Source of the DNA: Gnetum montanum
Taxonomy: Eukaryota > Plantae > Gnetophyta
NCBI GenBank assembly: GCA_015680685.1
Contig: MNCI01000996.1
Location: 63,371-127,370, forward strand
Length of the DNA stretch: 64,000 nucleotides
Direction of reading: 5' to 3'
In this document: positions 4,628 through 58,250 of the stretch, piece after piece
Layout: every line of letters begins with the position of its first letter
Numbering within the stretch: position 1 is the first letter of the stretch
The notes under the pieces: model-generated
Database searches by the model: none
The model's input: the letters and a program-made list of their open reading frames with translations, nothing else
What the model was told of the DNA's origin: nothing
Made by a program: the position numbers and the translations under genes

Positions 4628-4649
4628 ATAATTGAAGTACTAATATTAA

Positions 4650-8140: not shown

Positions 8141-8159
8141 ATGCCCTTAGATCACTTAA

Positions 8160-26554: not shown

Positions 26555-26877
26555 NNNNNNNNNNNNNNNNNNNNNNNNNNNNNNNNNNNNNNNNNNNNNN
26601 NNNNNNNNNNNNNNNNNNNNNNNNNNNNNNNNNNNNNNNNNNNNNNNNNNNNNNNNNNNNNNNNNNNNNNNNNNNNNNNNNNNNNNNNNNNNNNNNNNNN
26701 NNNNNNNNNNNNNNNNNNNNNNNNNNNNNNNNNNNNNNNNNNNNNNNNNNNNNNNNNNNNNNNNNNNNNNNNNNNNNNNNNNNNNNNNNNNNNNNNNNNN
26801 NNNNNNNNNNNNNNNNNNNNNNNNNNNNNNNNNNNNNNNNNNNNNNNNNNNNNNNNNNNNNNNNNNNNNNNNNNNNN
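26555..26877. other. Assembly gap (323 N)
   Basis: Run of N. Confidence 1.
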
Positions 26878-29800: not shown

Positions 29801-31714
29801 AGTCCATTTATGATGTGGAAAAGCTAATCTTTTTGAGAGAAATCATGGCTTGTTTTTCTTACTTTCATCCTTAGATTTGTTTTCTCAGGTTGGAAACTAT
29901 CACATAGGTTTGGTATTTCTTGTTAATGAGTTCTAGCATTATGGACCACTGGTGGATTAAACTCAGTTCCAACAATCTATACCTACTTTTAGCTTCATCT
30001 ATTAGTGTCGTAGGAAAGAGTTTAAGATTTTGCTACTTGTGTTTAATGTTTTGCAATGCATAGGCATCATGGATGCTTGTAAATGATGTTGTGGATTAGA
30101 ATTTTAGTTTCCTTTAAATTTAGAAATGTTGTTCATATTTAGCTAATTGATGTAGTTGTCCCTTTGATGCCTTTGGTATATTTGAACTACCTCCCTAATC
30201 TGTGTCATGTCACTGGTAGCCAACTAGGGTTCATCAGTATCAGACATGTCATGGTGATAATCTCTATTTCTTATTTATATTATGATGATGAACTTGCCTA
30301 TGCTCACTTTGTTGTCTTTGATCTTGCCCTTGGGTTTGATTTCTATCTCCATATTGACCCTTTAGTAGAGCTCTATCTCTACACCTACATTCATCTTCAT
30401 CAGAACTAGACATTAAAGAGGAAGAGGAAGATGGGGAACTAGGAGAATCACCATGGCTCCTATATCTTCCACCATGGTCTCTTGATCTATCTTTTCTAGG
30501 TTTAGAGGAGGTCCTAGGCCTTGAGGTTCTCCTTATTCTAGCACTTGCTTCATCTCCTCTAGGGTTTTCTTTACCAGTTGAACATAGTATTTGCATGTAG
30601 TACAAGTCAAAATGAACATATGAAATCCTTGCTTGAGGTTGTTCACTCCAATCCTCTTTAGTATAGAACGTACCATTTCTCCTATGAGTGTTTTCATCAT
30701 ATGATGCATTACTAGTACTATTTGAAGAAGACATGTTTTTAATGTTTGTGAATTAAATTATTAATATTTTCTAAAAGATAAATATTTAATACTTTTACAA
30801 CAATCATTTATGATATAACCAATCTAGATAACTAGCACCATTCTTAACAATAGTGCCAATGATGAATAATGGGTACCCCTTATGCCCAACCATATGAATT
30901 ACAAGCATTCACATGCAATCTAGCCAAATTCTATGGATGGAACTAGTTGTTACATCTAGATTGTTAAGCATTGTTTGTAGGACATTATCTTTCCACTTGG
31001 ACTAGTGGTAGCTTTGTTACATATGATTTAGTCCAAAGTAAGGCATATGATTGTTGATGTTGTTGTGGCCTTAAACTAATCTTACCAATAATAGAGAAAT
31101 TAATTACTTAATGTGATTAACAACAAGAAGATAAAGTCTAAACTAGCCTAAGGGTGATGAGTGTCCATTCCCAACTTTCCGTACATGTCCTAAAATTATG
31201 TATCCATTATTGGAATACCCAGTATTATGCTACTGGGAAAACCAAGCAATAACATTGTTGGGATTACCAAGCAAATATGTGTTTACACTCAAAACTGGTT
31301 GCACTCATTTCATCAATTGATTAACATGCATGAAATGTAAATATTGACCAAGTGCATGGGAAGTAAAGTGCATTGAAAATAAGTATAATCTCTTCCAAGT
31401 GTTAAAAGGTCTATCAAGAAGTTTGTCTTTATTACCATTCACACCAAAGTGTCCAAGTACATTAGTATTCGAATAGAGATCTGTAGACTTCTCAACTCCT
31501 ACCATGTGCACTTAAAAAATATTTTGACTATTACAGGAATGAACTACAAGAACTTTGCTATGGTTCTAAATGAACAATTTGTTAAATGTGGTAGGTACAT
31601 GCATTTATATAGACAAGGCTAGACACTTCATCGACATGTATGCATTGATGCATCAAATCATGCATCAATAGGTATGCATCAACACAACCCAACCAATAAT
31701 GATTCTTCAATAAT

Positions 31715-32200: not shown

Positions 32201-34481
32201 TGAATAGTGTAGCACCTAAAACATTTGGTGTTGAAACCCCAAAAAATTTAGAGTGGAATAGTTTTAATCTTAGATCCATGGACCTTGCAAAAAAGGATTC
32301 AAAGTGCCTTGGATGGTCTTGTTGACTACCTAGGGAGTTAAAGATTAATAACTGATGTATTAATAAAAATAAAAAAATGTATGCAATAGTGGTTTAAGCA
32401 TTAGATCCAATGAGTGAGAATAGAGAAATGAACAATGAATGTAGAAAAATAAAGAAAGATACAAATTTGTATTAATGCACTATAAAACAAAGGTTTAGGA
32501 AATACATATTGTGGGTTATAAAACTTGAGAACATGATAATATTTTTGATGCTTGATGTAGATAGCAGGGTGTATTCTAGCATGAAGTCTACACTTGTTCT
32601 TCTTCAATCAATCCACTCTCAAACTTTATTTGTTACAAGTTTTCTCTACTCTAGATGATTAGTGTTAGGGGATAAAATTGTTGCTAACTCTTGGGTATCT
32701 ACACTTCTCAAAAAGTCTCAAGTTAGCCTTGAATGAAAATTTTGTCAAAAGTCCTTTCAATGAAGCAAATTATTGTTTAAATAACTATTGGATCTTAATT
32801 TGTGGTTGAAAATTTTTTCCATGATTACTAATAGATTTTTGGCAAATTTTGGTGTGTTCAGGGCATCTTTTAGTAGCATATGAAGAAGTTTAGCTAATTT
32901 TTTTACCTTTACATGCTACCTCCACATACTACCGAATGTGTGGGATTTAGATGCCTAGTGTGTGGGCTTAAAGCCCAAATCCTATATGTTATCTTTGCGT
33001 ATTGTCTAATGTGTAGAACTGAAATGCTTAGCATGTGAGGTGAAAATACCAAATTTTGTAGCCTACAAAGAATTTTCAACCCTCAAAAACTAGGATACAT
33101 AGAATTTGCAGCTTTCACAAGTTGGAAGATAAGGAATTTACAGCTTATGAAGCATTTTCTTAGCCTCCCCAAGATGGGATGTATAAGGTCTACAACGTGT
33201 GAGCTACAAGTGTCAATTTTTACATTGAAAACTACTCTAAATTTCATTCATACAAGATCATAATTTTGGATTTTTTGGGTTTCCACTAAATTACAAAGAA
33301 TTTTAGTCATGGGCAATAACATGACTTTTTCTTTGGGGTGTTTCATGAGTCCCTCTTTGTTGATGTTTTAAGAATTGATCCACAAGACATCAACAAAGAA
33401 TGTGAAACACTACTACAAGTTTCATCATCAATGCTTTTTCTTCATGTTTGATTCGATTGCTATGAAACCATTCGAAAGATTTCCTATGATGATGAAACGA
33501 GGTCATGATGAAGTATTACGATTTTGAGAAGAGATAAAGGCTTTATGGGCTATCAAAGTTAGTCATATGGGTTAACATAGAATTTCGAATATTGAAATCA
33601 TGATTATGGTATGGTAGTGACATGTGAACTAGCTACATAGATCTTCATGCTTTGGGCGAACTACTAGCTACTCAATAATGTGTTAGATGAACTAGCACTC
33701 CACTCTTGGGCTTCTTTGACCACAAGAATCTTTCTTTTGCTTGTTTTAGGCCATTGATTCAGCTTTAGGCTTCATTGGCCTCTTGGATTTCTTGGAAATT
33801 TGCTTCCCTTCCTTTTTTTTCTTTTTCTTAGATGAATGAAACCTTCATTGGGTTTCATTACCAAGGTCAAATTTTGTTTTGTTTTCTCATTGAATAAGAT
33901 GTGTTTCATCTAATGAACTTGATGTCAAAGCATGTTGAAGGAGATGGCATAGGCCCATGATGCATAAATGTAAAAAATAGGTTTTCATTGTTATTAGGAT
34001 AAGGAAAATTGTAATTTGATTATGGGGATATGATTTCAAGAGGGGTAATCAAAGTGGTGTAATGCACACACTTTTAGCAAATTTGGATAGGCTAACTAAA
34101 TCTTGTGCATCAAGGTTGTGTGGTAACTCACTACTACGATGAGTTGCATCCTTGCAATGAATTTAGGCTTTATTCTATAAGCACAACTCCAAGAGGATAA
34201 GAAAATAAGTCAAAAAATACATGTGCATATAAAAGATTGCATAAGATCGCATGAGGAAATAGTTAGAATATAGACCATCCATTACAATTGATACAACATG
34301 AGAAATGTATATTTTGTTTCATAGATTTATACAAGTTTGTAGTTTATTTATTATGCCAAAGAAAGTAAGAACTAGAGGTTTCATAGGCTCACTTGTTGTA
34401 GATTGTAAAGGAAATTAGTGTCCATCATTTGTTCATACCTATAAATAAAAGTAAACAAAGGCCTTGAGAAAATAGGTTAGT

Positions 34482-37400
34482 GTTAGATATAATAAGATTT
34501 AAGATAGGAATGATTAATCAGATTGGCTAATTCATTCCCATCTATGTCTGCTAGTCTAAATGCTCTCTTGTAATAAGCTTTGGTAACCAAGAAAGGTCCC
34601 TCCCAATTGTCTGAGAACTTTTTTGCATGTTCATGAATGGTTTTAAGAACAAGGTCTACTTCCTTGGCTTTTCTTCTATTTGGATCATGATGATGTTGTT
34701 GCTTTAGCCTCTCTTGATATTATTTGATGTGAACTAGTGTCTATATTTGCTACTCTTCCACCAAGTCAAGGTCAATGGTATGTAGCTCCTTATTCTATTA
34801 ATCATTGATGAAGTTAGATAGAGCTAACCTTAGTGGTGGAACCTATAATTCAAGAGGAAAAAAAAACTTTAGACCTATAAAAAAGACTATCCATGGTGAC
34901 ATTGGTCATAGTTTGAACAGTTGTTCTATAGGGCTAAAGTACAAGCATAAGCCACTCATGCCACTTATGTCTACTATTGTTTAGCATATTTTTGAGTAGA
35001 TTTATGGTGACCTTATTATTGGCTTTGGCTTGTCCATTGGATTGAGGATAATATGCTAAAGAAAAGGAATTCTCGATGCTTACTTGTTGACAAAAAGTTT
35101 ATGTTTCTTGGCTACTAAACTATGGTCCATTGTGTATGACTATAGTTAAGGGTGTGCCAAAATGGGATACTATATTATCTAATATGAATTTATAGACTTA
35201 TTGAGATGTCATTTTCCTTAGAGGAATATCTTACAATAACTTTGTAAAATATTAGGTTATGATAATGATGAAGCTATGTTCTACAAAAGATTTAGGTGTT
35301 ATAGATCCAACAATATCAATTTCTCATTATTGAAATGGCCACATGTATTTAACTAGTATGAAACTTAGTTGGTGACACACATATTAAGTTATTGTAATAT
35401 TGACAAGTATCACAAGTTTTAACCTTCTTCAAGTAGTCACTTTCCATATAGGGCCAATAGTATCCTAATCATCTAATCTTTAGAACCATAGCTCTAGGTC
35501 CTATATGTCCTCCACATACACCCTCGTGTAGTTGCTCAAGGATTGTGCAAGCTTTTATTTGCCCAAGCACATCAACAATATGCCATCATAGGATCTTTGA
35601 CATAGTGTGTTATTGGCTAAAATGACATTTTTTTTATCTTTTACATACAACATCCTTTTGAAAGGTAGTTAGGTTCTATGAAAAATCACCATGAATTAGA
35701 TAAAACTTGATATTTTCATATAATTTTTTAAGGGACATCATCAATGGTGGCTCTATATATGCCCTCAGTGTTCTATGTGATGGGAAGAGCATAGTTTTCT
35801 CTCAAGAAGGGTAACTCACTAAACACATCCATTGTTATGCTTAGGGTCAAGGTTGTAATGGTGTTAACTAAGGTATTCTTGGTTCAAGGTATGTATTAAA
35901 TGTCAACATTTGTGAATTGTTCCATGAAGTTCTCTACTAGGTCACAATAAGATTGTAAATTTTTGGCTTTGCATGTGTAAAATTAGTTAATTTTTTAACC
36001 ACTAGTTGTGAATCACTTGTTATCATCAAACATTTGATTCTTTGTTACATTATTCCTTCGATCAAACCTTCATATTCCACAACGTTGTTGTACATGAAAA
36101 TTGAAAATGATAACTAAAAGATTGGATTGCACTAGAGGATGATATTATGATGGTAGCAACATTGACCCCATGGGTAGTAGAAGCTCCATCAAAGTGCATG
36201 ATTGTCTCATAATTCTTAGGTACCTCATTGATAATGTTGACAGACATGTCAAGGAAGTTGGGATCAACAAGTGTATTATCTTCAATTGGGGAAGTTGTAA
36301 GTTGTGCAGTTATAGCTTGACCTTTCATTGAGGCTTGGGAGAATGTAATGCAAGTCAAACTTAGCCATTATGACCTTCCATCATACTATATGATTACGTT
36401 TATAAGTCTTGGTAATTATGGCTCTCAGTATGTTATCCTTGCATATGACATTCACTTGGCACGTAAAGAGGTAGTTTCTCCACTTCTTCAAGTACAAGAT
36501 TAGGGCTAGGAAATACTTCTTAGCCTTTGTGGATTAGGTCTTGTAAGCCATCAATGAATGGCTCAAGTAGTGTACAGGAATTTTTGGTTGATCATTTTTT
36601 TTTAACAAAGCAGAGAGTCTATCAACATGTTAGAGATTACAAGGTAGATCTGAACAGTTTATCCTTTTGAGGAGAATACACCATGAGTAATTGGGTCAAT
36701 TCTTGTTTAAGATTATTAAAGGATACTTCTTAGGATTGGGTAGTCCCCTCATAGTGAACTCCCTTCTTAAGTAGGTGTTTCATGGGTTGTAGCTTATCTA
36801 TAAGCCTTGAGATGATCCTATGAATAAATTGTAATCTACCTTGTATTCTTGTTAACTCCTTAAGGTTAGTAGGTACTACAAAGTTGGTTATGGCCTTAAA
36901 CTTATCAAGATTGACAAGTATCCTAGCCTTGGATACTACAAAACCAAGAATACTAGTAGTTTTAATGTTGAAGACATACTTCTTAGGATTGAGCCTAAGA
37001 TCATACTTTAGGCATTGTTGGAGTACTAAGTTGAGGTCATGTGCATGGTAATTAGCTACTTGGGACTTGATTGCTATGTCATCAACATCATTGTTAAGTA
37101 ACCTTACCATGTAGTCACTAAATATGTAGTTCATGGCTCATTCATAGGTTGCACCTATATTCTTTAAACCAAATGACATTATGATATAACAAATAATTTT
37201 TCAATGGGTCATGAAGGTCATATAGAGTTGATGTTCTGGATTGATCCTAACTTGGTTGTACCCTAAGAACCTATCCATAAAGGATAATAAGACATGTTCA
37301 ACCATGGTATCGATAAGTTGATTGATGCTAGGCAATGAAAAATCATCTTTAATGATAACCTTATTAAGGTCTCTAGAATCTATATAGATATGAATGCTTC

Positions 37401-37960
37401 CATTCTTCTTGGGAGCTATTAGTATGTTAGACATCGATTCAATGTAGACACCAACATGTATGAAAGTAGCTTAATAAAGTTTCATGATCTCATCACGAAT
37501 TGCCAAGGCTAGATTTGGTCTAATTTTAGCCACATTTTAAAATGGGTTTGATGCTAGTATTGAGTATGATGTTATGTTGTATTAATCATGGGTCTAGAGT
37601 TAGCATATCCTCATGTGACCAATCAAAGGCCTTAATGTTGTTTTGAAGGACCTTGGTGATGTCTTGAGCTTCTTGTGAGTTGAGTGAGGAACTTAGTTTT
37701 AGCATTTTCTCCTCACCATTATGTGTTGTGATGAGAAGTTCAGCTAAAGATTCCTCAATAATGTCACCAGCCTCAAGGTCAAGGGCTTTGACTATGTGTT
37801 CAAGCCACTCAAAAGATTTTTCTATAAAGGCTATGTGGTCAAACAGGCTCTTAGGCTTAAGATTAAGGTAATTAAGATCAATGGATTACTCAACATCATC
37901 TTAAGATCCATTAAGGCTTAAAGGTAAGCTAAATTGTATCCATGTATTCATATTCTAGTC
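34482..37960 (-). pseudogene. pol: Ogre/Tat pol: RT, RNase H, additional (archaeal-type) RNase H, integrase
   Basis: RT PKKNGSIHIYIDSRDLNK..DDFSLPSI..FMDRFLGYNQV, VDDIAIKS, LRLNPKK; aRH MHFDGAS (~36190); INT WPFQ**EIDIVG, YYPQSNGQA, KFSDNWEGPFLV; ends NHSYLKSYYI*. Confidence 0.92.
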
Positions 37961-38299
37961 CTACACATTAATAAAGTGCATTAAGTGGCATCTGCATGAC
38001 ATAATTCACTAAATAATGCCATTTGACATAATAATAGAATACCATTTGACTCAACTATATCAAAAAAGGTGAAACAAGGTCCAATGATGATTAAAAATAG
38101 GTAAAAAAGGGTCAAAGATGCTAGAATACGATTGAATATGGTTGCATGTTGCCAGTTTTAGGTCTTAGTAGGCTATGGTGTTGCTAGTTTTAGTCCTTAA
38201 CAGACCATGTTTGGGGCTTGTTTGACTTACTTTGATTACTTGTAAGCTTGGAAGGGTCATTGTAGGACTTGTTAGAGTTTCTTAGACTAAAAATTATCA

Positions 38300-40250
38300 A
38301 GTTTGAATTGACTTTTTGCATGCAAAACCTTCATACATAGAGCCCACATGCTAGCCAACATGTGGGACTGGTATCCTAGCATGTGGAGTTTGGCCATGAA
38401 GTTTCCAGGAGATTTTGACTTAGTGTTTTGGAATTCTTGGGATCTTATGGTAGCTTCCAACATATGTAGAAGGGTTTAGACATCTTGTACGATAGGTTTT
38501 CGAGTCACAAGATTTTATATGGGTCATATGTTAGCCCACATGTTGGCTAGCATGTGGCACTTGGGTTACCAGTGTATAGGATTGAAATTTTGATTTAGGG
38601 GTCTTCTTTGAATTTTTTCTTATTATTGTAGGCTTTTGATGTCAATGTAGTGGCTTAGGGAATGATATGAGTTGGTTTTGGCACTAGTTTGAGCTCCTAG
38701 AAGGTCTTAAAAGTCCTCACATCTTGGACCACATGCTAGCTAGTGTGTGGGAGTATGGTCCCAACATGTAGGAGTCTAAAATTTGATTAATGAAGTCCTT
38801 AGAATTAGCTCTTTTGTTATATAAGTACTTTATGGTAGCACATAACTATTGGTATAAAAAATGACTATTTTAAATCCAAAATAAGTTAACTAATGGCCAT
38901 CTTAAAGCTCACACATTAGCCCACATGTTGGCCAATGTGTGCAACCTAGAGGCTTAGTGTGTGAGTACCAAAATCCATCTTTTCTTTTCTCAAACATAGT
39001 TAAATGATAGTCTAAATTCCCATTTAAGGTTTTGAAGTTCTACCAACCAAATTCTTAAAAATATTTAGAGTTGAAAGCTTTTTAAAGCCCTCCACACACT
39101 ATCCCATAGATTAACTAGCATGTAAAGTTTAGCTATCGAGTGTGTGAACTAAGACTTGACTAATTTAGATTCATTCAACCTAGTTTTCTAGTCCTTGGAG
39201 TCACTTGTGTTTGGAGATTTGTATGATGTTTCTTAAACATTCTAGATTGGAATGAATGTTATTTATAGTCCATACACTGGCTAGTATGTGGCACATCCTT
39301 CCAGTGTATGAAGTTAAGATTTTAGTTTATAAGGTCTTTTTGATTAGCCTTTTTGTTATCTTAGGCTCTTAAGTTAGTGTATAAGTTTCATCATTTTAAA
39401 ATAGCTCTCTTTGGCATTCTAGGGAGGTAAAGAAAAATTTTCATAAAGCTTATACACTTTCAACATGCTGGCTAGTGTATGGGCTTCATCTGCTTAGCAT
39501 ATAAGGCTTAAATTCATGTTTTAGAGGCTAAAAATTGGTTAAAGTTTAGGTCATCTTCTACCTTAGGCCTTTGAGCTTTTACCAATCAATTTTTAAGTTA
39601 TTTTGAGCCAAGGAAACTGGTCAAAAGCCCCCCACACACTGGCCAACATGTGGGCTTTGTGTTCCTAGTGTGTGGGCTAAGGATTGATGAATCTTAACCC
39701 TTTTTGACTTGTCTTTTTGGAGCTCTAGGATTACCAATGCCTTCAACTAGGGTTTAAGGCTGGAATTATCAAATTCGAAGGTTGTTTAAGGCTACACATA
39801 AATGTTTTGAATCCTACACACTGTCCCACATGTTGGTCAATGTGTGAGACTAATGTACCCAATGTATGAGGTTCTCATAAAATTTTCTTTGTATCTAGGA
39901 GCTCTTGTGGTAGTGCTTAGGGTTTTGATGTGACATGAAACTCTGTTGATCATCTGAAGCCAAGATTAAAGTGTGGGTGTCTCCTAGGAAAACTATTAAA
40001 GCCTTGTAAATTGCCATATAATTTGCATGACCTAGTGGGCATGATCCCCAACATATTGTTGTGTTTTGGCATCAAACCCCAACATTTGGGATTTTTTATA
40101 ATATTATTTTGCCCACCTAAGGTTAAAATAATTCATAGGGCATAACCTTAAGTAAACCTAGCATATAGGGTATTTCCTTTTGTAGATGTCTAGTTCACTA
40201 TATGTTAGGCAAGTTTCTAGCATACTGGGCCTCCATCCTCAATGCATAAG
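38300..40250. repeat. ~190-bp-period array of a palindrome (consensus CCCACAYRCTGGCCAGYRTGTGGG)
   Basis: Cores near 38343, 38534, 38729, 38919, 39092, 39270, 39460, 39631 and 39825. Related motifs occur in both LTRs (~32922, ~55211). Confidence 0.85.
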
Positions 40251-42857
40251 TACTTGGAAAAATTTTGATCATTAATCACTTCATGTATGCAATCATCCCA
40301 AGCTTGGCTTCACCAGGGCAATATTTGGAATTGAGGCTTGGCTATCGTGGCCTAAATACTTCATATTTGAGAGTGTATTACACACCCATCCACATCTAAG
40401 TATAGTATAATTGCAGAAAAATTGAAGATTTTGCTTTCATTTGATGATAGGCTAGGCCAAACTATTTTTTGTTTTAGTAATCATGATGAAAAGAAAGGGA
40501 TCATCAAGTAGAAATCCTACATAAGATGACAAGGCATTGAAGATCATTTTTCAACTTATGGATCCTTTTGCAAGAAAGGGATCTTTTCTAGGATGGCCAG
40601 GTACCTATCTTTTGCCAATTTTTACAAGTTTTCATCAAATTGTGAGGACGTTCTTCAATACCTAGGCTTGTTCTAGTTGAAAATTTTTTATTCTATTTGT
40701 ATTGAATACAAGGTTTAGGTTATGCAATTATGACTAGAACAAGATTTTTACTTTGGATTTATTTTTACAAAGATTTAATTTTTTCTTAAGCCTATCTACA
40801 ACATTTTTGTCATAGTTCTTGTGGAAACTAGTAAAAATTTGCAATTTTTATAAGTTCATGGTGTAAAAATTATAGTTTCCAAGTCCATAGGGTTGTTGTA
40901 TGAGGTTTTGCACTTACCCTACTTTTTCTATGATTTTTTCTCCAAAAGATGGATGGCGTTGACCATGCTAGGATTAATTTTGATAGCATCCAAGATCCTT
41001 GCGGATTACCAAGTAGTGTAGAGGGGCCTTGTATGAAGTTTTTAATTTTTTGAATTTTTTTGTATTTTTCGTAGAGGTTTTACTATAGTTATTTCACTAT
41101 AAACTAGTTTTTTCTTGAAAAAGTCCAAGTAATTTAAATTGCAATTTAAATTTTTGTAAGGTTGCTGGTGCAGTGTTGGAGGAGGATTTGGGTTGTTTTA
41201 GGCTTGCTCCCATCGTTTGTAGCTAGAAATAAAATTTTGAATTTTTTGTGAATTTTTCTAACCATGGAAATTGCCTTGGCTAGTTGTAGTTTCTATTCTT
41301 GGATTTTTTTGGCTTTTCTTGGTTGTTTGATAGTGTTGGGTACTTTGGTATGGGTTTTGGCAACTATGAAAATTTTTCATGGTTATTTTGACCATTGTGT
41401 AACATGTTTGAAGTTGCTAGGCCATCATGTATGATGCTTTGGAGCCTTTCACAAGTTTTCAATGGTAGCGTATGGGCTGAATTGTCTAGTAAAACCCACA
41501 TTTCTACTACCATCTTCTCTTGAATCCTCCCAAATTCCTAGCGTATGGGCTTCTAGGATGGTTTTACTAGTGTATATCCTACAAATTCTTGTACCTAATG
41601 CATCAATACTATCAATTTGGCTTGTTAGCTATTTTGAAATTTGGTTTCGTGCCAACTATTCCTATAAATGTCTATTGGTGATTTTTATGTCAAGACTTTG
41701 TGAAAATGTTAAGAGGTTAGACTTTTGTTTATGTCAAATTTGGAAATAATGAAATTTTTTATTTTACATATTTTTTACGTATTGTTGGTAGCAACACTGG
41801 TATTACATGTGTTATATTTGGTTCTAATGTTTTCTTATGGTAATATGGCTTGACTATGTAGGGTATTTTTGAAACTCATCATGGTTATCATTGAACTAGT
41901 TGAAATGCTATGTTGCATAAAGGTAGCTATGCAAAATAGCCTAAGCCCCAACATGGTTCTTGGACATCATGACTTGGTGTGGTTTAGAACTAGGCAAGAG
42001 AGTTCCTAGCATACTTGCTTCAATAATTTAGTGTGATCATGTGGTCATACTTGGCTTCGGATTGTGCAACCATGCTTGTAAAGACCCTTTTACCAACATT
42101 TTCCAATCACGTCATGAAGTTCATGGTAGATGAACATGATACTCAAGTAGAGGGTGATTAGCTCAATGGTTTGTTTACTCTATTGATGTGTAAGTTATCT
42201 CAGATTTGGGATATGCCTAAGTATTCTTGATATAATACCAATAACATCTTAATGATAGGCCATCAAACTAACATCTTGTTTCAAAACCCTTCCAAAACCT
42301 TCTAACTTTTGCAAGCATAAGCTTTATCTTAAGTTTTCATCTTGTTTTTATTTATGTTAAGCTATTTGCTCTAATGATCTTTGCATTCTCATGTTGTAGA
42401 TATAGGGTTTATAATGGAGGATTGATTAAGAGTGATCAAGTTATATTTGTGATGTTGTAGCCTTGGAAATATTTACACAAGGCCAAATTATAAGATTTGT
42501 GATGTTGTAGCAACTTTGTGATGAATTTACTAGGCATAATTCATGGTTTTCTCAATTTTGCTATAGGTGTTTAGCTACTAAGACAACTCATACCTAGTGG
42601 AGTCTCCTGGAGTTAGGAGTACATGCACCCATAGCTTCAAAGGTTCCAATTTTGCTTAAGCCAAGTAACTAGTTTTCATTTGTGCAAAGCCAACATTCTT
42701 CAATGTTTTTTCTCTTTGGTTATTTTAGTTTTAGTTAGTTAGTTGGTTCTAGCTTTATGTTTATAACTTCCTAGCTTTGTATGGTCTACCTATGTTAAAG
42801 CCAATGGACTACTTGTGTTGGCTTGCAAGTCTTGTGCATGGTTTACCTTTGTTATGA

Positions 42858-45520
42858 TCACCTTGGGCAAAATAGAGGAAAAAGCATACTTAAGTGGGGT
42901 GAAGTAGACTCATCATAGGAGTGGCTAGCAAGCAAAGCTCCTAGAAAGATTAAGCAGAGGATCATCGATGCTGGTTTACTAGATCTATTTATGCTTGATA
43001 GCTTGTTGATGTCCATAATAGAGATGGTGAATGTAATTGATTTATTTGAAAAAGGAGTTAATAAATTCATCTCTTGTATCCATGATATCCTTATGGTTTT
43101 GAACATCAATGAGTCTAAATTTAGTGATCTCTGTGGTATTCCTTGTGATGACATCAAAGTTTCTACAAGAGAGAAAAAAGAGGTGAGCCATATACAGGAG
43201 ATGGAGGAATGACTTAACTCTCATAGCAATGGATCATTGACCCTTGATAAGTACAAAGTCAAAGAGGTAAATGAGACCTATCCTCTATTTTATTTAAGAG
43301 AATTTCTCCTATTGTTCTCACAGAAGAAGATGATAGGTGTTTAGTAGGCTTGGATCATGAAAAAGATTCTCACCAATGATACTAAGTTTTTAGGCTGTGA
43401 GATGAAATTTGAAAATTCTGCAATAATCTTGATACGATATGTCATATGCATTTCACATTCCTTGCTACATATCTTAGGAGGTTTATGGAATTATTGGTGG
43501 TTAAGAAATATGGAAATTGGATGAGCCATGATCTCTCCTAGTTTTTCAAGCCTTAGGCCAAACATATTGTTCCAATGATGCATGTCCAAGATCCATTAGC
43601 TTAGTATATTGGAGAATTGTTGTCAGTTATCACTAAGAAATTTAGCAGTGTGCATTATGCTTTCCTTAACAACATGGGGATATAACTTCTTGCTACACGT
43701 GGTAATGCCAAGAGAGCTAAGAAGGTATGTGGAAAAGTTGATGATGTGGCTAAAGAGAAGATAAAGAGGCCATTAGTTGAAGTAACTATTCTTGTTGTCA
43801 ATTAGTAGATACATAAGAAGGTATTCATCAGATTTTGCAACATGGATTAGTCTATTGTAGGTATGTATATATGAATTTATGAATTTTTATGTTTATATAT
43901 ATATATTATTTATTGTTATGTATATATATCATTTTTATCAAAATGTTTCTAACTTATTCTAAGTTTTACCTTTGCCATGATTGTAGGGAGATAATAAGGA
44001 TTGGAAACCTAGGCCATTGCAGAAGTAGAACAAAGATGTAAGTAAGAAGAGGAGTGAAGACATCAAGAGAAGGAAGAAAGAGTATCCAATGAAGCATTGG
44101 ATGCCATGGATACTATGTTTAAGGACTCGCCTTTAGGACGCAACTCCCTTGTGGATATGCCTTATTATTTTCCAAGTACTTACTTAATTTTAATTATATT
44201 TTTACTTTTAAAGTTTATGTCAATTTTCTAAAAGTTGTGTTGATGATTATACTTCTTATGATACATGAGCCCCCTATAGAAGCATCTACATCTAAACTTT
44301 GCTTGAAGCATTGGGTTGAGGTTTTAGACAAGGTAAAATTCATGTAAGACACGGTGGATGATATGGTCAATTGATTACAATAGATAGCCCCTGATGTTGA
44401 TAAGAATAGTTAGAATAATTTTGCTTTGCATTTTTTACTTTAAGCTTTAATGGTTTTGGTGCTATAAAATATTTTGGTTATTTTTGTTGTTTTTTTATTT
44501 TTATGTTATGTTTTGGTCATTGTAGTATCCAATGTTAGATGGAATCCTACATGTGACATTGAGCTCCTTACACTTCCACCTAAGGTGGAGAACATTCCAT
44601 GAAGGTTATATGAGGGAACTACTTAGTGTGATATCTCATGTGCTAGAACATCTTGGAAGTGCCAACGCTCTAATGAATTCCAATGGGAGAAGGTCATGGC
44701 CTTGGAAAAGTAGGTTAAATCATCATCAAATGAGAAAAAGAGGCTTAGGGATTGTAAAACGTTTATAGAAGCCCATGTGGCCAATAGATAATCTTTGAGC
44801 ACTAAAGAAATTGAGTGGTCATGCTACTAGAGTACCATCTAGGGCAAGGTTGCTCTAGCTAGGAGCAATGTGGAAAAGGATATGCCAATGGATCTGCTAA
44901 TTCATAAGACTAGAGACTAGAGGGATTATTATGCCTGGATGCTTGAGTGAAGAAAGAAAACAAAATGCTCACAAGCGACAATACAAAGTAGAAAAGGAGA
45001 GTTATCTAAAATGACAACATGAGGAGGTTTTTGGATGTAGAAAACTTGAGTTATTTGTATAGGGAATAAATGTAGAGAACACTTTGAAGATATTTGTAGA
45101 TTTAGTGATAGTGTCCAATTCTCTTGCCCTTTAGATTAGCACTACTTCTAGAGAGACTACCTCTGCTACTCTTACCTAAGAGCCTCCTGAGTGGATAAAC
45201 ATTGAGAGGAGAAATATCCTAGCAGAGGTAGATCTAGGAAAAATCAACTAGACAAACATGAGTGAAGAGCAAATTCTTCACAAGCTAGAGACAAGTCTTT
45301 AGACATTTACCATAGAAGGTATTGCCTCGAAATCCATAGAGGTTTGTTTTTAAAGTTTTGAAGATTTTATGTTATATTTTAGCTTTATTATATTCTTAGT
45401 TCTTATGGCTTCATAGTTATGCTTTTTTTATGATGATTAGTAATTATTTATGTTTTGGTTATTTATAGGCTTGAGGTGATTGTAATGACATTGGTGATGA
45501 TATAGGCACTCACCCTTCGC
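42858..45520 (+). pseudogene. Antisense, multi-exon plant mobile domain (PMD)-like gene remnant inside the Ogre spacer
   Basis: IKQRIIDAGLLDLF..VIDLFEKGVNKF..LNINESKFSDLCGIPCDD resembles the PMD iTl.dv..llGLP..G motif. GT-AG introns at 43861-43986 and 45342-45468, plus two more with decayed donors (44155-44279, 44400-44525). Charged, coiled-coil-like 3' exon. Confidence 0.55.
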
Positions 45521-46259
45521 CTCTTTCTCTAGCTTAGTTTTAGCTATGTTAGTCATGGTACTTTTTTGTCATTCTAGTTATAGTATTGTAGTTATTTACT
45601 TTGGCTATCGTAGCTGTTGGGGACTATGTAATATTTTAATATTATTATTTGATTATTACATAGTGCAACCATGGCTATAGGACATTTTATTTATTCTTGT
45701 TCTTATCATTATTTCATCACACAATGTGACTATGGCTATTGGTATGGACACTTTGGTCATAAAAATATTTTAAATATTTTTATTTTATTAATTTTATTTT
45801 TTCTTGCATAAAAGATCTATGCATTAGAACAATAAGATTATAAAAGAAAGTTTCACAGTAAAATAGTAAAGGTGCAAGATACAGTGTAATAGCTTTTAAG
45901 TGACCTAAGAAAAGGGAAACAATGGTATTACTAGTTTTAGGCCCTAGTAGGCCACTAGTTTAAGGCCTTGGTAGGTCATTTTTTTGGTTTTATGTTTTAA
46001 TAATTTTTAGGAAGTTTTATGGTTTTCCATTTTTTATGACATTTTATAGTTTTAAAAGAAAACAAAAAAGGAGAATAGGAATAACTTGTAAACCTAACAC
46101 AAGAATGTAAAGCAAAGGCTAAATAGCAATAAGTCATAATAAGGCTAAAAATTTATTAAGAAAAGTAAATTAAAACAAAGCATATAAATGAAAGTTAAAA
46201 CCTAGGTTATAAAGTAAAAGGCTACGTGGTAATGTTAGATGGCATGCTTAACCATGCAA

Positions 46260-49200
46260 CTATTTCCTAATCTTTAAAACACTAGGGAACTTGTAAAGCC
46301 TTTGTTGCATGATCTTGTACCCTCCATTCTCTTCACTAACAATGTTGAATGGAAGCTCTTCCCATGTTTCATTCATGATTTTATTATTTTTGGTCTTGGA
46401 TTGGTTTACATTATTATGTCTCTTGACTTTGCTTTTGATAGTAGGAGCCTCTTCTTGAAATTTCACTTTGGATCCTTGTTCCACATCAATATTGTTGACT
46501 AACAAAGGGACTACACTATTACCATGTATTATGATTTCATCTCCTCCATAAGGTAGGTGAATTTCTTGATGTATAGGAAAAGAAATTACTCTTAACTTAG
46601 CCAACCAAGGCCTCCTTAGGATTAGGTTGAATCCTGCTATTTCTAGCACCACTAAGAAATTAGTAGACATGGAAAACTATTTCCTCATGATGAAGCCTAA
46701 AGAGATAGATCCTCTAACTATTACCCATGAATTGATAAAGGACTTGAGAGTAGAGGTGGGTGTGCTTTGTATATGATCCAACAAGCCTAGATGTGTTATG
46801 ATGGTAGAAGTTATAACATTTGTAGCTGCTCTATCATCAACATGTACCCAGTGTACCTTGTATTTGCCAATTCTTATAGTTATGAAGAGAGGGGCTTTTG
46901 ACTTCACCGGTGTGTAGACTAGTCTTTACCTCATTATCATAAAATAGTAAGGCAGTTGACTTTGTTTCTTCCCTAGGTGAAGGTGGTACCATTACCGCAT
47001 GAATGGATTCTTCTCTAGTAGAAATATATTCATTGCTAGGAATAGAGGTTAACTTTTTAACTAAGGCCTTGCTGTGAGTAGATAAGGTCATCACTAGGTC
47101 ATATAGGCTTAAAGAAGTATTCTTCAATTTGAGAGAAAGCTTGACTTGTTCTATGACAGTGAGTAAGTCTTTGTCACTATTCATGATCTTTTCATTCTTA
47201 TTGACTTTGAATTCTTCCTTTCTACTTGGAATTTTTACCTCATGCTTTAGCATTTGTGTTTTAGGCCCCTCTTTTTTTTTGTTATTTTTTGTCATTCCTA
47301 GGTTGACTTGTTGAAGCAAATTTTGCATTAGTATCCATAGGTATTGCTAAGATTGGGGTGTGCTTTGGTAGGTCCACCTCTTTTCAAAGTTGTGGTTGTT
47401 TACTATTCTTAGATTTAGGCTAGTAGGATGGCTTCTTTTATTGTTTGATTAGTGACTTTTTGCTATTTTTTTGTGAAAATTTTGATGCATTGGTTACCAT
47501 GGAAGAATGTTGATCAATTTGTATCATAGAATTAGGCATGGTTGGGAGGGATAGTCTAATAATGAATGGTTCTTTAGGAGGCATAGGTGATGGTACCCTT
47601 ATGAAAAAAGGAGTTCTTGAACTTGATGAAGTTGATGTTCTTTCATTACAAGGAGGTATCAAAATTGCAAATGGCTCCTTGGCAAGTTTAGGATTGTTGC
47701 TAACATTAAAGGTAACTATAATGTAGGAATTGTTACTAGCATTTATTAAATCTTTATATACTTGCATGTGTTGGTTCTGAGGCATAACTAGGTTTGATGT
47801 ATCTATAACCAACTTACAATTGTCTATCATCTTTTAAAAATCATCCTTTAAAGCCTAGAAAAAATTAGTGTCATGACTATGAAGCTAGTGGTAATGGTAG
47901 AATCTATCTAGTTAAAAATATTTGGGAATAGGTGGATCATCCTTTGTGGCCATGGTGGATTTCTTAGTGATCTCACACAAGTAGTCATGCCTCTTGTGGG
48001 AAAGTTTTGTCATCTATTTATATTGGACATGATGACTCTTGAGTAATTGGTCAAGAAGCTTAGATGATTTCATGGGCAGCTTCATGTATTTGGACTAATC
48101 TTTTCTTTTGAGGTTAGGCTTAGATTGATTGGATGTAGAGGCATCCGATGTTGAAGGTTGAGTAGTAGTGGTAGGGGCCTTTAGTTGATTAGTTTTTGGT
48201 TTGTGTGTGGTTTTTGTTTCTTTGACCATGGTGGCCACAACTACATGGTTCTATTACTCTTTATTCATATATGTTCATGTATGCTAATTCTTGTATGTTA
48301 CATGGGCAAGATCATTGCTAACTTTAGTGGCATCCTCTATGTTTTTGGTTTGGGAGAAGGCTTTTCTAAGTAATTTCAAGTCTAGGAAATATAATTTAGA
48401 CTTGATAAAGTCATTAATTGCCCTCTTGAATATGGATAGAAGGTGTGTGTTAGTGATGGGTTCAAGAATCTCATTAAGGAGTGCATTTCATCACTGTATG
48501 AACTTCTGTATAGGTTTAAGGGATCCTTGTTTAACTTTCATTAGTTGGTCAAGTGTTGTATTTGGTTTCAAGTTATACTTGAAATGGTTAATGAACTATG
48601 TAATCAAGTCCTCTAGTGAGGTAATGGAACCTCTAAGTAGAGTGAAGTACTAGTTTAGGACCTTCCCAATAAGGGACATAGGAAAGATACACATAATAAT
48701 GGGGCCAAGCTTGTAAAAACAAGCACTTGAATAAGAAGATAATGAGATATGAATATGGATCATCATTGCCATTATACTTGGTGAACTAGAGAATGGGAAT
48801 TCTAGCAAAAAGAGTTATCTATGGGATAGTGGAGTTGATGGGGTGATATTGGTAGAAGTCCATCATCTTCACTGTCTAAGTGGTGGAGGCTGTGAGCTTT
48901 CACAGCTCTTTGATGAGGTCCTAGATCATCTAAAAGGCTTAATCTAGGACTTGGAACATTTCCATGACTTGTGGTATTTGTACAAATGGCTATGAAGGGA
49001 GTTGAGAGGCTTGGGGCCATGTGATGAACATCGGTATTGATGGAAGGGGCTAGGTGATCACTATGGTAGAAGGGTTAAATAGAGAAAAGGATGTCTGAGC
49101 TCACACTTGGAGGATAAAGGAGATAAAGGAAATGTAGGAGATTTACATAGCTTGGGATCCCAAAGAGTGTTCCACTAGTATGATGAAGGGAGATGGTGAT

Positions 49201-49600: not shown

Positions 49601-50430
49601 AGTTTATTAGGTTGATTTGATCTTAAGGGAAGTGTATGTATTCCTTCCCATTTCTGTTGATGATCTTAAACTAATGTTTGACATCCGATTCAAGATGTGG
49701 AGTTAGGAGACCTACTTGAATTCCAGCACAAAATAAAATTATGATACTTCTTATTTATTATTGTGAAGTCTAGTTCTTGTGCCCTTCATTTAAGTGATTG
49801 TCTACTATATATGATTGAAAGATCCTTGGGATTATAGATGTGAATTGCTTCTCGATTGGAGGCCATTTGTATTATGTTGTGAGGCAAGATTGTTGAACAA
49901 TGAAAAGGCATAAGCAAAGTGATAAACCAAGTGATTGGCTAAGTCTATTAACATGTGAGAGTCTCTGTGAGAACCTCTACATATGAGCATCTCAGTGTAT
50001 GGAGTAATCTTAGCCTTAACCATTGCAAAGTAAAAATTTCCATTTAAAATTTGTTCAAGGAAAATGGCCGAGAAATTATAAAATGTAGAGATGAAAACAA
50101 GGATTTCAATGTAGATTGAAACTTCAAGAATAGTGCATGTGGCTGTGATAGCACTGTGCATTGCACTAGAAGAAAATTAGCTCTTATGTTTTAAAAATGA
50201 AGGGAATGGTGGAAGCATTGCAAATTGTAATTAGAAAATTGAATGGAAAAAGATTTGTGTTGGTACATTTGGCCATTCCATGGAACAGTTGCAATATTTT
50301 ATGGTTGTAAATGTACAAAGTGAATTTCAGCTTTAGTGTTGAAGGTTGGGTGTTTTTAAGGAAGCAATTCACTAGTGAAAAAATTGATGTTAAAGCCTTC
50401 TCAATATAAGATAAAGGTGCCAAATTATCT

Positions 50431-53400
50431 TGTTGTTAAAATCAGAAATTAGAACTATGGCAAGGAAGCAAGTATGTTATTCATGTGAAAAGCATTAAGT
50501 TGCAGATCCCGGTTTACAAGACAAAATAAAAAATGTAACAAAACCAGCAACGCCTTCGTCGTTTTGAAGATCATAAAAAGAAAGGCAAATTAACATCCAC
50601 CACTGTACCTACTGAAGGGAAAAACAATGGAGATAAGGAAAATAGTGAAAGCATAGGAGACTGTTGCAGGAAAATGTACAACATCACCACCGTGATGTTC
50701 ACCCTGGCGTAGACGGACATCTTCACAAACACAAGAATATTACTTCAAAACAAAGTTTGAAACCCCCATTTGCGAAATATGCAAGGAAATGGGTTATGCC
50801 TTGTTAAAACCCTGATTTGTTTTGCAGGTCGTGGTGTTTTTGATCCTTTTTGCAGGGTATAACATAGAAGGTTCCTACGGATCTGCTGGACGAAGATCCA
50901 CAAAACATTGGCCCATGATTCGGCAAACAGAAAAACGCAGGAAGGAAAACAGAAAAAAAAAACATAAGTAAAGACAAGTCCAAAAATCGCAACAAATCAG
51001 AATTTTGCGTGACAAAGATTAGATGGCTGGTAGCCTTGCAAAACACAATGTTTGCCTGATGCAGATGCAGCTTGGCAAACGCACGTCATGACAGTAGTGT
51101 CGTGCACACAGCACCCCTGTTGCCAGCTACACTTAGATCCTTTAGATCCGCGCAGCACGGTAATCTTCTGCGAAAATGCAGTATCCAACAATCGAGGTAA
51201 GAAAATTCTGGAATGTGTGGGTTTTTAGCGGGGAACAGAAATGGATTTACGAGTTTGCTGCCGTAAAGAAGATAATGAAATAGTAATGTGTATCGATCAA
51301 GAATGGAGGCAAGGCTCGGCACACGTTCTTTATTTCAAATTTCTATAATGATTTACCATAGGGTAAATCTGCAACATAGCATTTTGCGGAAATGAAGAGA
51401 GTTTGAGGATATCGCTCCTTGAGATTGCAGACTATTTTGGGGATTTAATTTTGTGCAACATGGGATGATACGGCGCTAATCCTATAGCTGAGATTTGTGT
51501 GGATCATTCTATTAAGGACAATGGTTGCTGAACGCAGAGGCTCTGGGCGGTGAAACCTTAAGTTTTATTTATTTTAAATTCATTTCATGTGTGGATGAAT
51601 TTCCGTAGGATAGTGCAGGTGAGAAGTAAATCATGGCTATATTTGTCGTGGCAAAGGTTACAACAGTTTCAAATTTTTTCGGCACATTCGGCAATGTTAC
51701 CGAACGCGGTGGCGGAGCCTTCTTCTGCGGAAACAGTTGACAACGATTTTGGACTGGGTGGGACAATTTGGAATTATTTACGGTGGTTACAGGCCCAGAT
51801 CTCATATTTTATGTCAGATACAGGAAAGATATATAAGAACGGTCGTGACCTCTGCATCCACAATACCCCTTGACTATAACATGATAAGATACACATATAC
51901 CCATAGTGTGAAGCCCCAGTTATAAACTTACCTTTTTTTTAGACTTTAAAAACATTATTATATAAGTTTTATAGTTTAAACATGTTTATAATATTTGTAG
52001 TATAGATATAACTTCGATAGCATAAATCTCTCCTAATTATATGTATAACCTCCTAAATAACTCTTTCCTAATTAAATGAGTAAGTTGTAACCTCCTTGGG
52101 AGAAAAGTTAGCTAGGATATTTTAGCAAGTAATCTCCTATTGGTTGGCCAAGTTACTTGTGAGAAAAGTTAGGAGAGATATTTTTGAGATATTTTTGGGA
52201 TATTTGGAAATTGCAACTTCCCTATACAATACTTAGAGGACATCTCATTTTGAAGAAGCAAAATTAAAAGGATATATATGTATGGAGTAAGTTGCAACTA
52301 TAGCTTGTATTCCTATGTATTTTAGAAATTGTATTTTAATTTTCTATGATATTGTAACTACCAAGGCCACTTGTCAACTTCTTTTTCTCTTTGGTGGTTG
52401 CAACCACCCAAAATTGTTGTAACTTACCTAACTTGTTGGGCAAGTAATCTTCTAATTGGTTGGCCAAGTTACTTGTGAGAGAAGTTAGGTGAGATATTTT
52501 TAAATTTGTAACTTCCCTACCTACCTTTGAACCCTATAAAAAGGTTGGGGGGAAAATAAGATCATGATCACACTAAGGAGGACTTGGTATCATCACTTCT
52601 CACATCATTTGGGGTCTCATACATCACACTTTGAGAAGGCTACTAGTTAGCATTTGGGCTCTTACTTGGAGACACTTTGAGTCTTGGGAGAAGAGCTTTG
52701 TAAAGAAGAAGTTGTGACGATTGCTTGCAAGATGGCTTGCTAGAATAAAGATTTCAGCCTCTTTGTCATGGTCCTATGAGTTATGCATTTCATTTCTTAT
52801 TTTGTTTAAATTTTTTAGCTAGTGGTTTAGATAGTATCATCCTTGGCAAGTAATTTTGGGATTTTTAGATTGCTCTTATTGTTCTTGTTGCCCGATAGAA
52901 ATTTCTATTAAAATTTTGCCATAGAAGCGTTCGTGTTTAAAAGCCTTAAGAGCATTTTAGTAGTAAATTTCATTATTATGCAACGTGTGGGAACTACTAT
53001 TGGGATTGTTGTAAGAGAGCCTCTTTTTGTAGTCACGCCGTTGAACAATTCAGTAGTCGAGAGGGTTCAGAGAATCTTTGGTATTTTGATGGAACCTGAA
53101 TAGCTTCTTTTTATCTTTAAAGTGAATTCTCGTGGTATTTCAATCAGAAATTGTCAAGTCTTTTAAAGGTTCTATTTGAATGCAATCGTTGACATCTATT
53201 ATCTAGTCAAAATGGAGTCTCGTACGTGGTAGTTTACGCAGCAATTTTTGGTAACTTAGTAGGATTGTCTTGGAGATATTGCTTGTTTGAGCCTTGTAAG
53301 TTTGAACAATTCGTAGATATTGAATTTGGGATAGCTTTATTGCGAAGTGTTTACTCGTGTCATTTTACCTTGTTTAAATATTTGAGGTCTACACAAATCT

Positions 53401-53837
53401 GCTTTCTTTTCTTTTCTGCTTATTTCCATCGAATCTTGCTCTATTTCTAGTTTTCTTGTGGAACTATCTCTTTCTCTGGGGAAAATTAGGAGTAGATTAC
53501 GGAGTTGTGCTCAAATGTTTTTGCAAAATTTTATTTGTTACAAGTAGGTATTATAAGGACCGCGTAGACTAGGCAGTTGAACAAAATAAGAAATTTTCAA
53601 GAACTCACAGTACTTGACAAAGTTGGCTGAATCTCTTTAAAGTAAGTCATTTATAGTTCACACACAACACAATTGTTACATTTTACACAACCACACGCCG
53701 CAACAGCACACACACATACTCACATTAACTACTGAGTTTATTTGGAGGTATCTGGGCCTTGGTGTTTCCAGAGACCAGCAGGCACCTAAATCCTGTTCGA
53801 GGACACTTGTTGGCGGTCGCGTCCCAAACGGTCGCCA
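50431..53837 (-). mobile_element. Younger CpG-rich non-coding retroelement-like insert: PBS, leader, PPT, single LTR-like block
   Basis: PBS-like TGGCGACCGTTTGGGAC (53821-53837). PPT-like AGTCAAGGGGTAT (51863-51875) is directly followed by TGTGGATG at 51862. CpG is retained at 50500-51862 and 52890-53837. The left end is uncertain (50431, 50484 or 50534). Confidence 0.5.
51907..52890 (+). mobile_element. Truncated gypsy-type LTR fragment
   Basis: Starts TGTGAAGCCCC, internal ~47 bp duplication (52127-52172, 52442-52489), TATA-like CCTATAAAAAGG (~52533). No matching 3' terminus. Confidence 0.5.
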
Positions 53838-56499: not shown

Positions 56500-58250
56500 T
56501 AATTTCTGTCTTTGAATTAGCTACTTTTTCATTTGTAGGTATTTGATGTAGAGACACCTCTTTTAATCTCCTTTTCACTTCCCTACAGATCCAAAAGATA
56601 TCTCTCCTAGGTTGGAGACATCTTCCACACATATGACATCAGTGGAAATGTCTCACCTCAATAGGGAACATCTCCCGCACCCAAGAGACATCTCTCTTGC
56701 AAGTTGGTTTTGATAGGTAGAAATCCTGAGAAAGATAGAGATGACCCATATGGCTAGAGAAAATTTCAAATTAGTAGTTTCAAATTAGGAAACAAATGAA
56801 TAAGAGGACAAAAAGATGAAAATAGTCAAAATTCTTCAAGTTGAGATTGGGAAAATACTTCTAGATTTCATATCTTGGTTTTCTAATAAATTTTAATATT
56901 GTTTCATGTTTTTTTCATGAAGGGTTGGTAAGAGATACCAAAAGAGTACATTGTATGAGTGCATGATTGTGGTTGCAACTTCAAGATCAATTGTATATGT
57001 GTTGGTCTATGTGTTCTTGTATTCCTAGTTATGTGTTGAGATCTTAGTCTTAAGTTATGGGAGATATTTCCTTTAGGTTATGCCTTGCATTGAAGATAAC
57101 CATTGTGTAATTTTGAAAAACCTCATTCTTTGAAATATCATGAGTGTGTATGAGTGTTTTGGATGTTTGTGAGATATGGAGCCATATTATAATCTTCTCT
57201 ACATTAATTTAAGGTAGCTAGTTTTCTTATTTTCTAACATATTGAATTATCTTTTATAATATTTTGATTTATTGGAATTAAAGATTAAGTTTTATTGGAA
57301 TGAACCTACTCTAGCATTATTAGTATTAGAGATTTTGGTTGATTATTGCTAGGAAATTAGTTGTAGAATTTTGTTAAATTTAGATAGCGCCTAATAAAAA
57401 ATAGGTTCAAGCCTTGAATAGAGACATATAACACTAGAGTAGGTTTACTCCAATATCATTTAGCCTTTAATCCTACTAAACCTAGATATTATAAAAGAGA
57501 ATTCAATATGATATAAAATAAGAAAACTAGCTATATTCAATTAATATAAGGAAGATTATAATAGATCTTTACAATATACAAACATCCAAAATACTCACAT
57601 ACACTCATAATATTATAGAGCATGAGGCTCTACAACCATAAAATGATTTTGTTTAATGAAAGGTACAACTAAAAGAGAGTCTTTCCAATTACTTAGGATT
57701 GAGATTTCAACACAAGCAAGAATATAAGAATACATATACCAACACATACACAATTGACCCTAGAGCTATAACCATAAATATGCACTTAAATAACATGCTT
57801 TCTTAACATCTCTTACCAACTCTCCATGAAAAAAGCATGAAACAACAAGAAAATTTATTGGAAGACTAAGATATAAAACTTAGAAACCTTTCTCCATGCT
57901 CAACTTAAGGAAGTTTGATTATTTTCATCTTTTTTTATTTTATCTAACTATTTTCCAATTTGTAATTGCCAATTTGGAAGTTTTCTTGGCCATACAAATT
58001 ATCTTTGACTTCCTTAGGATGTCTTACTATCAAAACGAAATTATAGAAGAGAAGTCTCCTAGGTGTAGGAGATGTCTTCTATTAAGATGAGATGTCTTCA
58101 ATTTGGTTGAGGTGTCTATGTGTGGAAGACATCTCATCAAAGACATTTCCAATCTAGAAGATATGTTTCTTGAATTTAACAAACATCTTGTATGAAGACT
58201 TAACTCTCAACCAAGACATCTCCTTAACCTCCAAGACATCTCCATAGTTC
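56500..58250. repeat. Long imperfect inverted repeat of two LTR-like arms (~56500-57314 and ~57433-58250)
   Basis: Arms are reverse-complementary throughout, e.g. GAGTGTTTTGGATGTTTG versus CAAACATCCAAAATACTC and ACCTACTCTAG versus CTAGAGTAGGT. GAGACATCTC repeats sit at both outer ends. Spacer ~120 bp. Confidence 0.8.

Follow-up and report, generated by a model that had tools for sequence, protein, structure and literature searches.

How can a long terminal repeat (LTR) retrotransposon hold some 8.3 kb of DNA between its protease (PR) and its reverse transcriptase (RT), and what is this DNA? The question is raised by a locus of Gnetum montanum, which lies in a stretch of 64,000 nt (assembly GCA_015680685.1, contig MNCI01000996.1, positions 63,371 to 127,370 of the forward strand); the whole stretch is called the window, and its numbering is used throughout. 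The locus is a dead copy of a Tat-clade element on the minus strand, and its PR-RT gap contains a degenerate palindrome array and, in the opposite direction, a likely gene with intron-shaped segments. We see a little better than an even chance that the gap is a native accessory module, consisting of the antisense gene and the array shared with the LTRs, which was copied together with the element. A first-pass annotation, made from the letters alone, had described the same region as a spliced antisense PMD-like gene within the PR-RT intron of an Ogre-like retrotransposon.

A Tat-clade element with a long PR-RT gap

Self-comparison of the window revealed a direct repeat (32216-33345 and 54512-55659), which represents the LTR pair. 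The LTR termini were TG..CA on the minus strand, the ungapped identity of the two copies was 82.8% (Kimura two-parameter distance, 0.20), and an intact 5-bp target duplication, AATAG, was present outside both LTRs. Given two LTRs with matching AATAG at the outer ends, the segment 32208-55659 (23.45 kb, minus strand) is a single integration of an LTR retrotransposon of the Tat clade. To find gag, RT, RNase H (RH) as well as integrase (INT), the broken frames were translated with X at the interruptions. All genes of the element were dead, and the domain order was gag-PR-RT-RH-aRH-INT (aRH, additional RNase H), in which PR stood on the gag side and RT after the PR-RT gap (Table 1). The RT domain ran downward from about 37705 on the minus strand according to Pfam and tblastn, and tblastn matches to aRH-bearing Tat proteins were obtained over 36617-35997. 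PR had no Pfam match and was identified from tblastn alone. The 3' region after INT measured 1.1 kb and bore no sign of an extra open reading frame (eORF).

Beside the 5' LTR, no TGG-led primer site for tRNA-Arg was recognised; the site may have decayed. The sequence TGGCGACC at 53830-53837 was considered as a primer site and rejected, as it ends a CpG-rich segment common to positions 1-219 of the window. This CpG-rich segment is a younger insert in the 5' region of the element (~50400-53837; CpG observed/expected, 0.66). Its right end is 94% like window 1-219, and both stop at the TGGCGACC terminus (minus strand).

The closest RT relatives were 35-43% identical and were mostly aRH-bearing Tat proteins of flowering plants, most of them carrying PF13456. 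In an RT tree (FastTree, 101 sequences), which contained no named Ogre reference and in which the query RT was decayed, the element formed a long branch outside the clade with the PMD/DUF7745-bearing and Transposase_28-bearing loci (support 0.50). The RT loci from metagenomes (80 kept of 485 confirmed) were 32-42% identical to the RT of the element, and none was close. Two of the metagenome loci, L061 and L104, branched basal to both the element RT and the angiosperm Tat clade; L061 has a single frame at 3463-9693. The aRH, the LTR pair, the 5-bp duplication and the domain order all fit the Tat clade (Ty3/gypsy), to which the element belongs. The likeness to Ogre that had been proposed at first pass covers the build only, as the RT appears on this tree to fall outside the angiosperm Ogre or Retand sequences.

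The PR-RT gap extended over 37961-46252, that is, 8,292 nt, which confirmed the separation of 8.3 kb noted earlier. A contig of a related organism crossed the RT-side border of the gap with 3 mismatched letters plus 11 in gaps, so this border is no assembly artefact. On the minus strand, the gap was rich in U at either end, with an AT skew of +0.44 at 46101-46200 and +0.27 at 38001-38100, over ~210 nt on the PR side and ~180 nt on the RT side.

The palindrome array and the probable antisense gene

The array lies upstream of the antisense gene and, on the minus strand, directly upstream of RT, and its nine units follow one another at spacings of 192, 193, 192, 182, 167, 191, 171 and 194 nt (~190 bp). 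It was not detected by Tandem Repeats Finder at 38303-39965. An nhmmer profile built from the nine gap units alone matched both LTRs, where the shared motif falls within the first 430 nt, whereas the best match outside the element within the window had an E value of 7.8 and a reversed control one of 7.6. The palindrome said at first pass to be common to the gap and the LTRs was thereby recovered and forms the core of the array unit. In records of relatives (1 and 3 contigs and 1 read, with short sides), the LTR motif was followed by another palindrome copy, a weak hint that the LTRs of relatives hold more array units. A second palindrome-like motif family, with a spacing of 80-220 nt, was observed in other elements at 2740-3188 and 19900-20213, and arrays of palindromes may be widespread among the retroelements of the Gnetum montanum genome.

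The antisense frame had been described as broken by four AT-rich segments of 125-127 nt, two of them with intact GT..AG ends. The two intact segments (43861-43986 and 45342-45468) were found again, both with AG/GT..TAG/G ends, and were the only two matches when the 64-kb window was passed through a strict intron filter in both directions, the filter having been defined after both segments had been seen. A third segment was 126 nt long with a decayed donor. The fourth was not recovered at the length given; the candidates for it measured 104 or 122 nt, the latter at 42278-42399 (70% AT over 42274-42399). The intron-shaped segments were unrelated to one another (10/10 pairs within the shuffle range, with two of the five segments cut ~1 base off).

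The best frame, 42859-43467, contained 4 stops in 203 codons, comparable to RT (4/286). Evidence for coding came from relatives. Of 84 RNA reads placed (run X14), 18, from the poly(A) RNA of one relative, fell at 43318-43365, and in this one short stretch, as read from 40 of over 3,300 difference rows, five of the seven listed differences affected the third position of a codon in the 42859 frame. At the remaining two, the relative had sense codons, while this copy has two adjacent stops. By hand reading, the loose end of the relative's RNA reads continued for 10 more codons without a stop, with 3 identical residues. Another 14 reads (X11), at 41030-41069 and ending in poly-T where the sequence is T-rich, were set aside. 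The case for coding is thus based on the third-position bias and the sense codons of the relatives and not on the openness of the frame; judged from these sequences, the intron-bearing antisense gene is likely real, and to this extent the opposite-strand frame of the first-pass annotation was upheld.

Origin of the gap and access to pol

The ratio of observed to expected CpG for the gap was 0.13, against 0.09 for pol, 0.04 for gag-PR and 0.66 for the nested younger insert. The CpG decay of the gap equals that of pol, which indicates that gap and element are of about the same age. As for a terminal inverted repeat (TIR) or target duplication of the gap's own, which would mark a nested transposon, the 25 longest of 184 inverted pairs in the window included none that joined the gap ends, save one 31-nt low-complexity pair, and blastn gave no inverted self-match across the ends. 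The only candidate for an LTR pair of the gap was a 63% match over 137 nt, compared with 83% for the host LTRs. A native cargo, as suggested at first pass, is therefore favoured over a nested foreign transposable element, because the array motif is specifically common to both LTRs, CpG in the gap has decayed to the same level as in pol, and neither TIRs nor an LTR pair were found at the gap ends.

How such a module could be maintained and expressed may be set out as follows. A single integration event holding gag-PR, the gap and pol is established by the LTRs and the target duplication. The full-length RNA would be packaged unspliced, and the introns of the cargo, being opposite in direction, would never be spliced out and would survive reverse transcription. 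That an antisense placement shields introns from loss in reverse transcription follows from established retroelement biology. Like gene23 of Grande, the cargo would have a promoter of its own, here on the plus strand and past the array, and pol would be reached by removal of the whole gap as an Ogre-type intron, with the U-rich halves flanking the cargo; this last step is the one that we hold most loosely. The product may be a nuclear regulator of the PMD/coiled-coil type acting on the array and the LTR motif, by analogy. The link to MAIN/MAIL1 drawn at first pass is likewise taken by us to be an analogy, not a result. The module as a whole would correspond to the antisense-ORF and tandem-array unit that follows the integrase in Retand and TatV elements, here located between PR and RT.

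A number of results weigh against this reading, several of them concerning the nature of the product. In Pfam searches of six frames and of single exons, no match to PMD (PF10536) or DUF7745 (PF24924) was obtained. When four undamaged 156-aa fragments from an authentic PMD of a retrotransposon were run as a control against PF10536, three scored 21, 21 and 13 bits and one had no match. As all control pieces remained under the cut-off of 34.9, a PF10536 miss on a decayed copy says little. The gap protein had no relative among 729 candidates from a 5.8-billion protein set (longer proteins only) and no match in a 1.84-billion representative set, and its one match in the PDB was by chance (E 0.24). 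A PMD/DUF7745 profile built from 5 sequences matched nothing in the gap or elsewhere in the window. When the gap frame was aligned to PMD with hhalign, the score was 18.2 (maximum of 30 shuffles, 16.7) with a probability of 0.6%. Further searches found no relative of the gap protein in viral contigs or elsewhere in the window, and the best E value among 104 collected loci was 0.42; the LTR end had no match in viral contigs either. The ESM Atlas returned nothing for the gap protein and confirmed a control protein as PMD/DUF7745, and a single-sequence structure model was unusable (predicted local distance difference test, pLDDT, 37). To our eye, the best frame bears a likeness to PMD-type motifs, and PMD is a candidate identity. 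Charged, helical-looking stretches downstream of the frame look by eye like those of the PMD-coiled-coil eORFs (PMC4408406). We give the product an even chance of being of the PMD/DUF1985 type.

The remaining contrary points concern the gene and the gap. The openness of 42859-43467 was equalled by 43/500 shuffles. The RNA mates ran in both directions (8 and 10), so that the reads indicate no strand; none of the 15 RNA joints listed, out of a set with 1000 more, fitted the predicted introns, and the PR-side end of the gap fell outside the read coverage. The summed contig depth of relatives at 80% likeness, which is not a copy number, was in two organisms 138-1022 for the gene part (41968-44400), 19-121 for the array part (38305-40746), 275-480 for most of the LTR and 2,600-22,500 for pol, against a single-locus word depth of about 4-7. 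Depths above the single-locus level mark the gap as repetitive, which is a point in favour of the module. The gene part was several-fold deeper than the array, and the array was shallower than the LTR; relatives of the antisense gene may sit in other contexts too. In the relatives' contigs, which were short, linkage of the gene to gag-PR or pol was unseen and no sister copy was whole. Of the two splice sites said to bound the gap, the acceptor-like site at 37961 was fair (11% of YAG sites were equally T-rich, and a G follows), but the donor-like site at 46252 stood at the level of chance. It fits 3/7 consensus positions, as do 47% of the minus-strand GT dinucleotides in the window, and it sits 8 nt past the stop that ends the PR frame, although this stop may be decay.

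The weak donor past the PR stop could also be accounted for by a native module with a separate pol transcript, in which the array would act as an internal, LTR-like bidirectional promoter and the acceptor at 37961 would serve a short leader intron. On the minus strand, RT follows directly on the array, whose motif recurs in the first part of the LTR, and an ATG in the frame leading into RT is found 12 nt past the acceptor. Foamy viruses, moreover, make a separate pol mRNA. However, the minus strand is rich in U on the PR side of the gap, as expected for the 5' part of an intron, the PR stop may be decay, and splicing at the PR-RT position is established in Ogre. We regard this explanation as unlikely.

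We are similarly doubtful that the 7.9-kb core of the gap was a mobile element in its own right (a non-autonomous Tat derivative or a DNA transposon, now decayed) whose target was an ordinary PR-RT intron of ~400 nt, either in this copy or in one short-lived sublineage. A weak direct repeat near both gap ends, with a score of 124 (maximum of 111.5 in 200 shuffles), could represent relic LTRs of an older nested element, which is a further point against a native module. Two U-rich halves flank the core, the gene part is deeper than the array, nesting is common here, as seen from the younger insert in the 5' region, and PMD and DUF1985 genes with introns occur in Mutator-like elements (MULEs). 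On the other hand, the weak direct repeat (63%) is more diverged than the host LTRs (83%) and so predates the insertion of this copy; its halves are not the LTRs of a later arrival. The core also has no TIR, its CpG decay is equal to that of the host, and the array motif matches the host's own LTRs. Under the native-module reading, the direct repeat may record how the module entered the intron.

That the gap is non-coding filler, a product of repeat expansion and AT-rich scraps with the frame and introns arising by chance, would agree with the absence of family matches in Pfam or the large protein sets, the openness within chance and the unusable structure model, but is very improbable in view of the third-position bias in an expressed relative, which also has sense codons in place of both stops, the greater depth of the coding-like part and the location of both strict intron matches inside the gene.

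Table 1. Coordinates of the element, its gap and the features within them (window numbering)
Feature	Position	Strand	Evidence or remark
3' LTR	32208-33345	-	TG..CA; target duplication AATAG at 32203-32207
Array-unit motif, 3' LTR, two matches	32905-33063		nhmmer E 6e-11, 2e-4
Polypurine-tract-like stretch ahead of 3' LTR	33346-33360	-	sequence, by eye
Integrase with stops and frameshifts	34489-35555	-	PF17921 E 2e-10, PF00665 E 5e-5; tblastn
Archaeal-type additional RNase H, located after native RH and before integrase	35946-36095	-	two weak matches: PF00075 E 0.008, PF13456 E 0.026
RT and native RNase H with N-terminal extension	36340-37961	-	PF00078 E 1e-11, PF17917 E 2e-8
U-rich acceptor side of gap; TAG/G acceptor-like site at 37961	37961-38140	-	splice-site scoring, AT skew
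Weak direct repeat, left copy	38149-38280		63% over 137 nt compared with right copy, E 0.001
Degenerate tandem array, 9 units, each with a 24-nt palindrome-like core	38303-39965		mean unit identity 46%
TATA-like box ahead of antisense gene	41663-41669	+	by eye
Likely antisense gene, decayed, approximate limits; best frame 42859-43467	41900-45500	+	relatives' contigs and RNA reads
Intron-shaped segment, GT..AG, 126 nt	43861-43986	+	strict filter
Candidate intron, GT..AG, 104 nt	44176-44279	+	by eye
Intron-shaped segment, 126 nt, donor one letter off, acceptor intact	44400-44525	+	by eye
Intron-shaped segment, GT..AG, 127 nt	45342-45468	+	strict filter
Weak direct repeat, right copy	45928-46052		blastn self-match, alignment score
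U-rich donor side of gap; weak donor GT at 46252	46040-46252	-	splice-site scoring, AT skew
Protease and C-terminal tail, stop at 46260-46262	46260-46889	-	tblastn E 2e-6 over 46551-46889
Gag capsid domain	48413-48688	-	PF03732 E 3e-4
5' LTR	54504-55659	-	target duplication AATAG at 55660-55664
Array-unit motif, 5' LTR	55198-55258 and 55423-55502		nhmmer E 1e-5, 0.008

Other features of the window were recorded as well. A 1.5-kb imperfect palindrome, with arms about 72% complementary, occupies 56615-58135. Perfect 59-nt inverted repeats, 1.9 kb apart (11430-11488 and 13375-13433), enclose one copy of a 76% direct repeat (11910-12956 and 15788-16846). An 80% direct repeat of 0.8 kb (24212-25017 and 30860-31664) is possibly another LTR pair, and the 323 N of the window appear between its copies, near 26001-27000. 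A 15-bp A-rich tandem array of about 11 registers was located at 60928-61147. Decayed remnants of RT/RH and integrase were present at 6825-8062 (+) and 21642-22322 (-), with no match to the gap gene nearby.

Comparison with known systems

Already known are antisense eORFs with an array after the integrase, the intron of Ogre, and PMD eORFs on either the 5' or the 3' side; the locus appears to depart from these in its placement between PR and RT. In the literature on Tat elements, covered through the main texts of recent surveys and, for most papers, through titles, no account was found of an additional gene lying between PR and RT. In surveys of plant LTR elements, extra genes stand ahead of gag or behind the integrase, and only those two positions were scored in the largest one. 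If the arrangement is family-wide, a spliced PR-RT gene would constitute a third position, missed by design, and would be likely to break the automatic annotation of large gymnosperm genomes.

With Ogre (Tat lineage IV/V) the element shares a PR joined to gag, non-coding DNA before RT, an aRH between RH and INT, and a very large size. The PR-RT gap of Ogre has a mean of 274 bp and is spliced as an intron (PMC6317226; PMC4408406), in contrast to the 8,292 nt found here. PMD was found in 57% of Ogre elements (PMC6317226; PMC4408406); an eORF of Ogre is found in sense 5' of gag or in antisense 3' of INT, whereas the extra gene described here is in the PR-RT gap. Besides Ogre, an aRH between RH and INT also occurs in Retand and in Tat structure 1 of gymnosperms. 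The latter ('retroviral' dual RH) is known from gymnosperms and angiosperms, and the gymnosperm clusters are Tat J/K (PMC10508981; PMC13468544). Its domain order is identical to that of the element and fits an RT outside the angiosperm clade; Tat J/K are candidate clusters for it. The main texts of the two gymnosperm Tat surveys (PMC10508981; PMC13468544) make no mention of antisense ORFs, introns or PMD (0 occurrences).

In Retand, Grande and RIRE2, an antisense ORF stands beside a family-specific tandem array, always between pol and the 3' LTR (PMC11963269; PMC7264820). The antisense ORF gene23 of Grande is described as having its own promoter (PMC11963269; PMC7264820). The likeness to the locus is an antisense ORF adjoining a family-specific tandem array. 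The differences are the Transposase_28 domain there, with introns unmentioned in the Retand paper, and the PR-RT position and intron-shaped breaks here. The fungal chromovirus Boty offers another additional antisense gene in an LTR element, brtn, which is cited in PMC8365987 and PMC4227169 and lies between pol and the 3' LTR. It reportedly has a multi-exon structure and, if so, would be a precedent for introns retained through antisense placement.

In VANC/VANDAL, binding and demethylation have been demonstrated (PMC5735166), and PMD-C protein-motif modules have been described (bioRxiv 10.1101/2024.09.27.615353). VANDALs are DNA transposons, however, and the match with the present locus is one of anatomy only. 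By analogy, an intron-bearing antisense gene of the PMD/DUF1985 type might encode a protein that binds the palindrome of the array and the LTRs, and the array might be a switch for pol, through a giant intron or an internal promoter; gymnosperm Tat elements would then harbour, amid their coding sequence, a VANC-like unit for sequence-specific anti-silencing, which we consider rather improbable. The candidate gene and the adjacent palindrome, which is shared with the LTR, are a concrete candidate protein-motif pair for anti-silencing.

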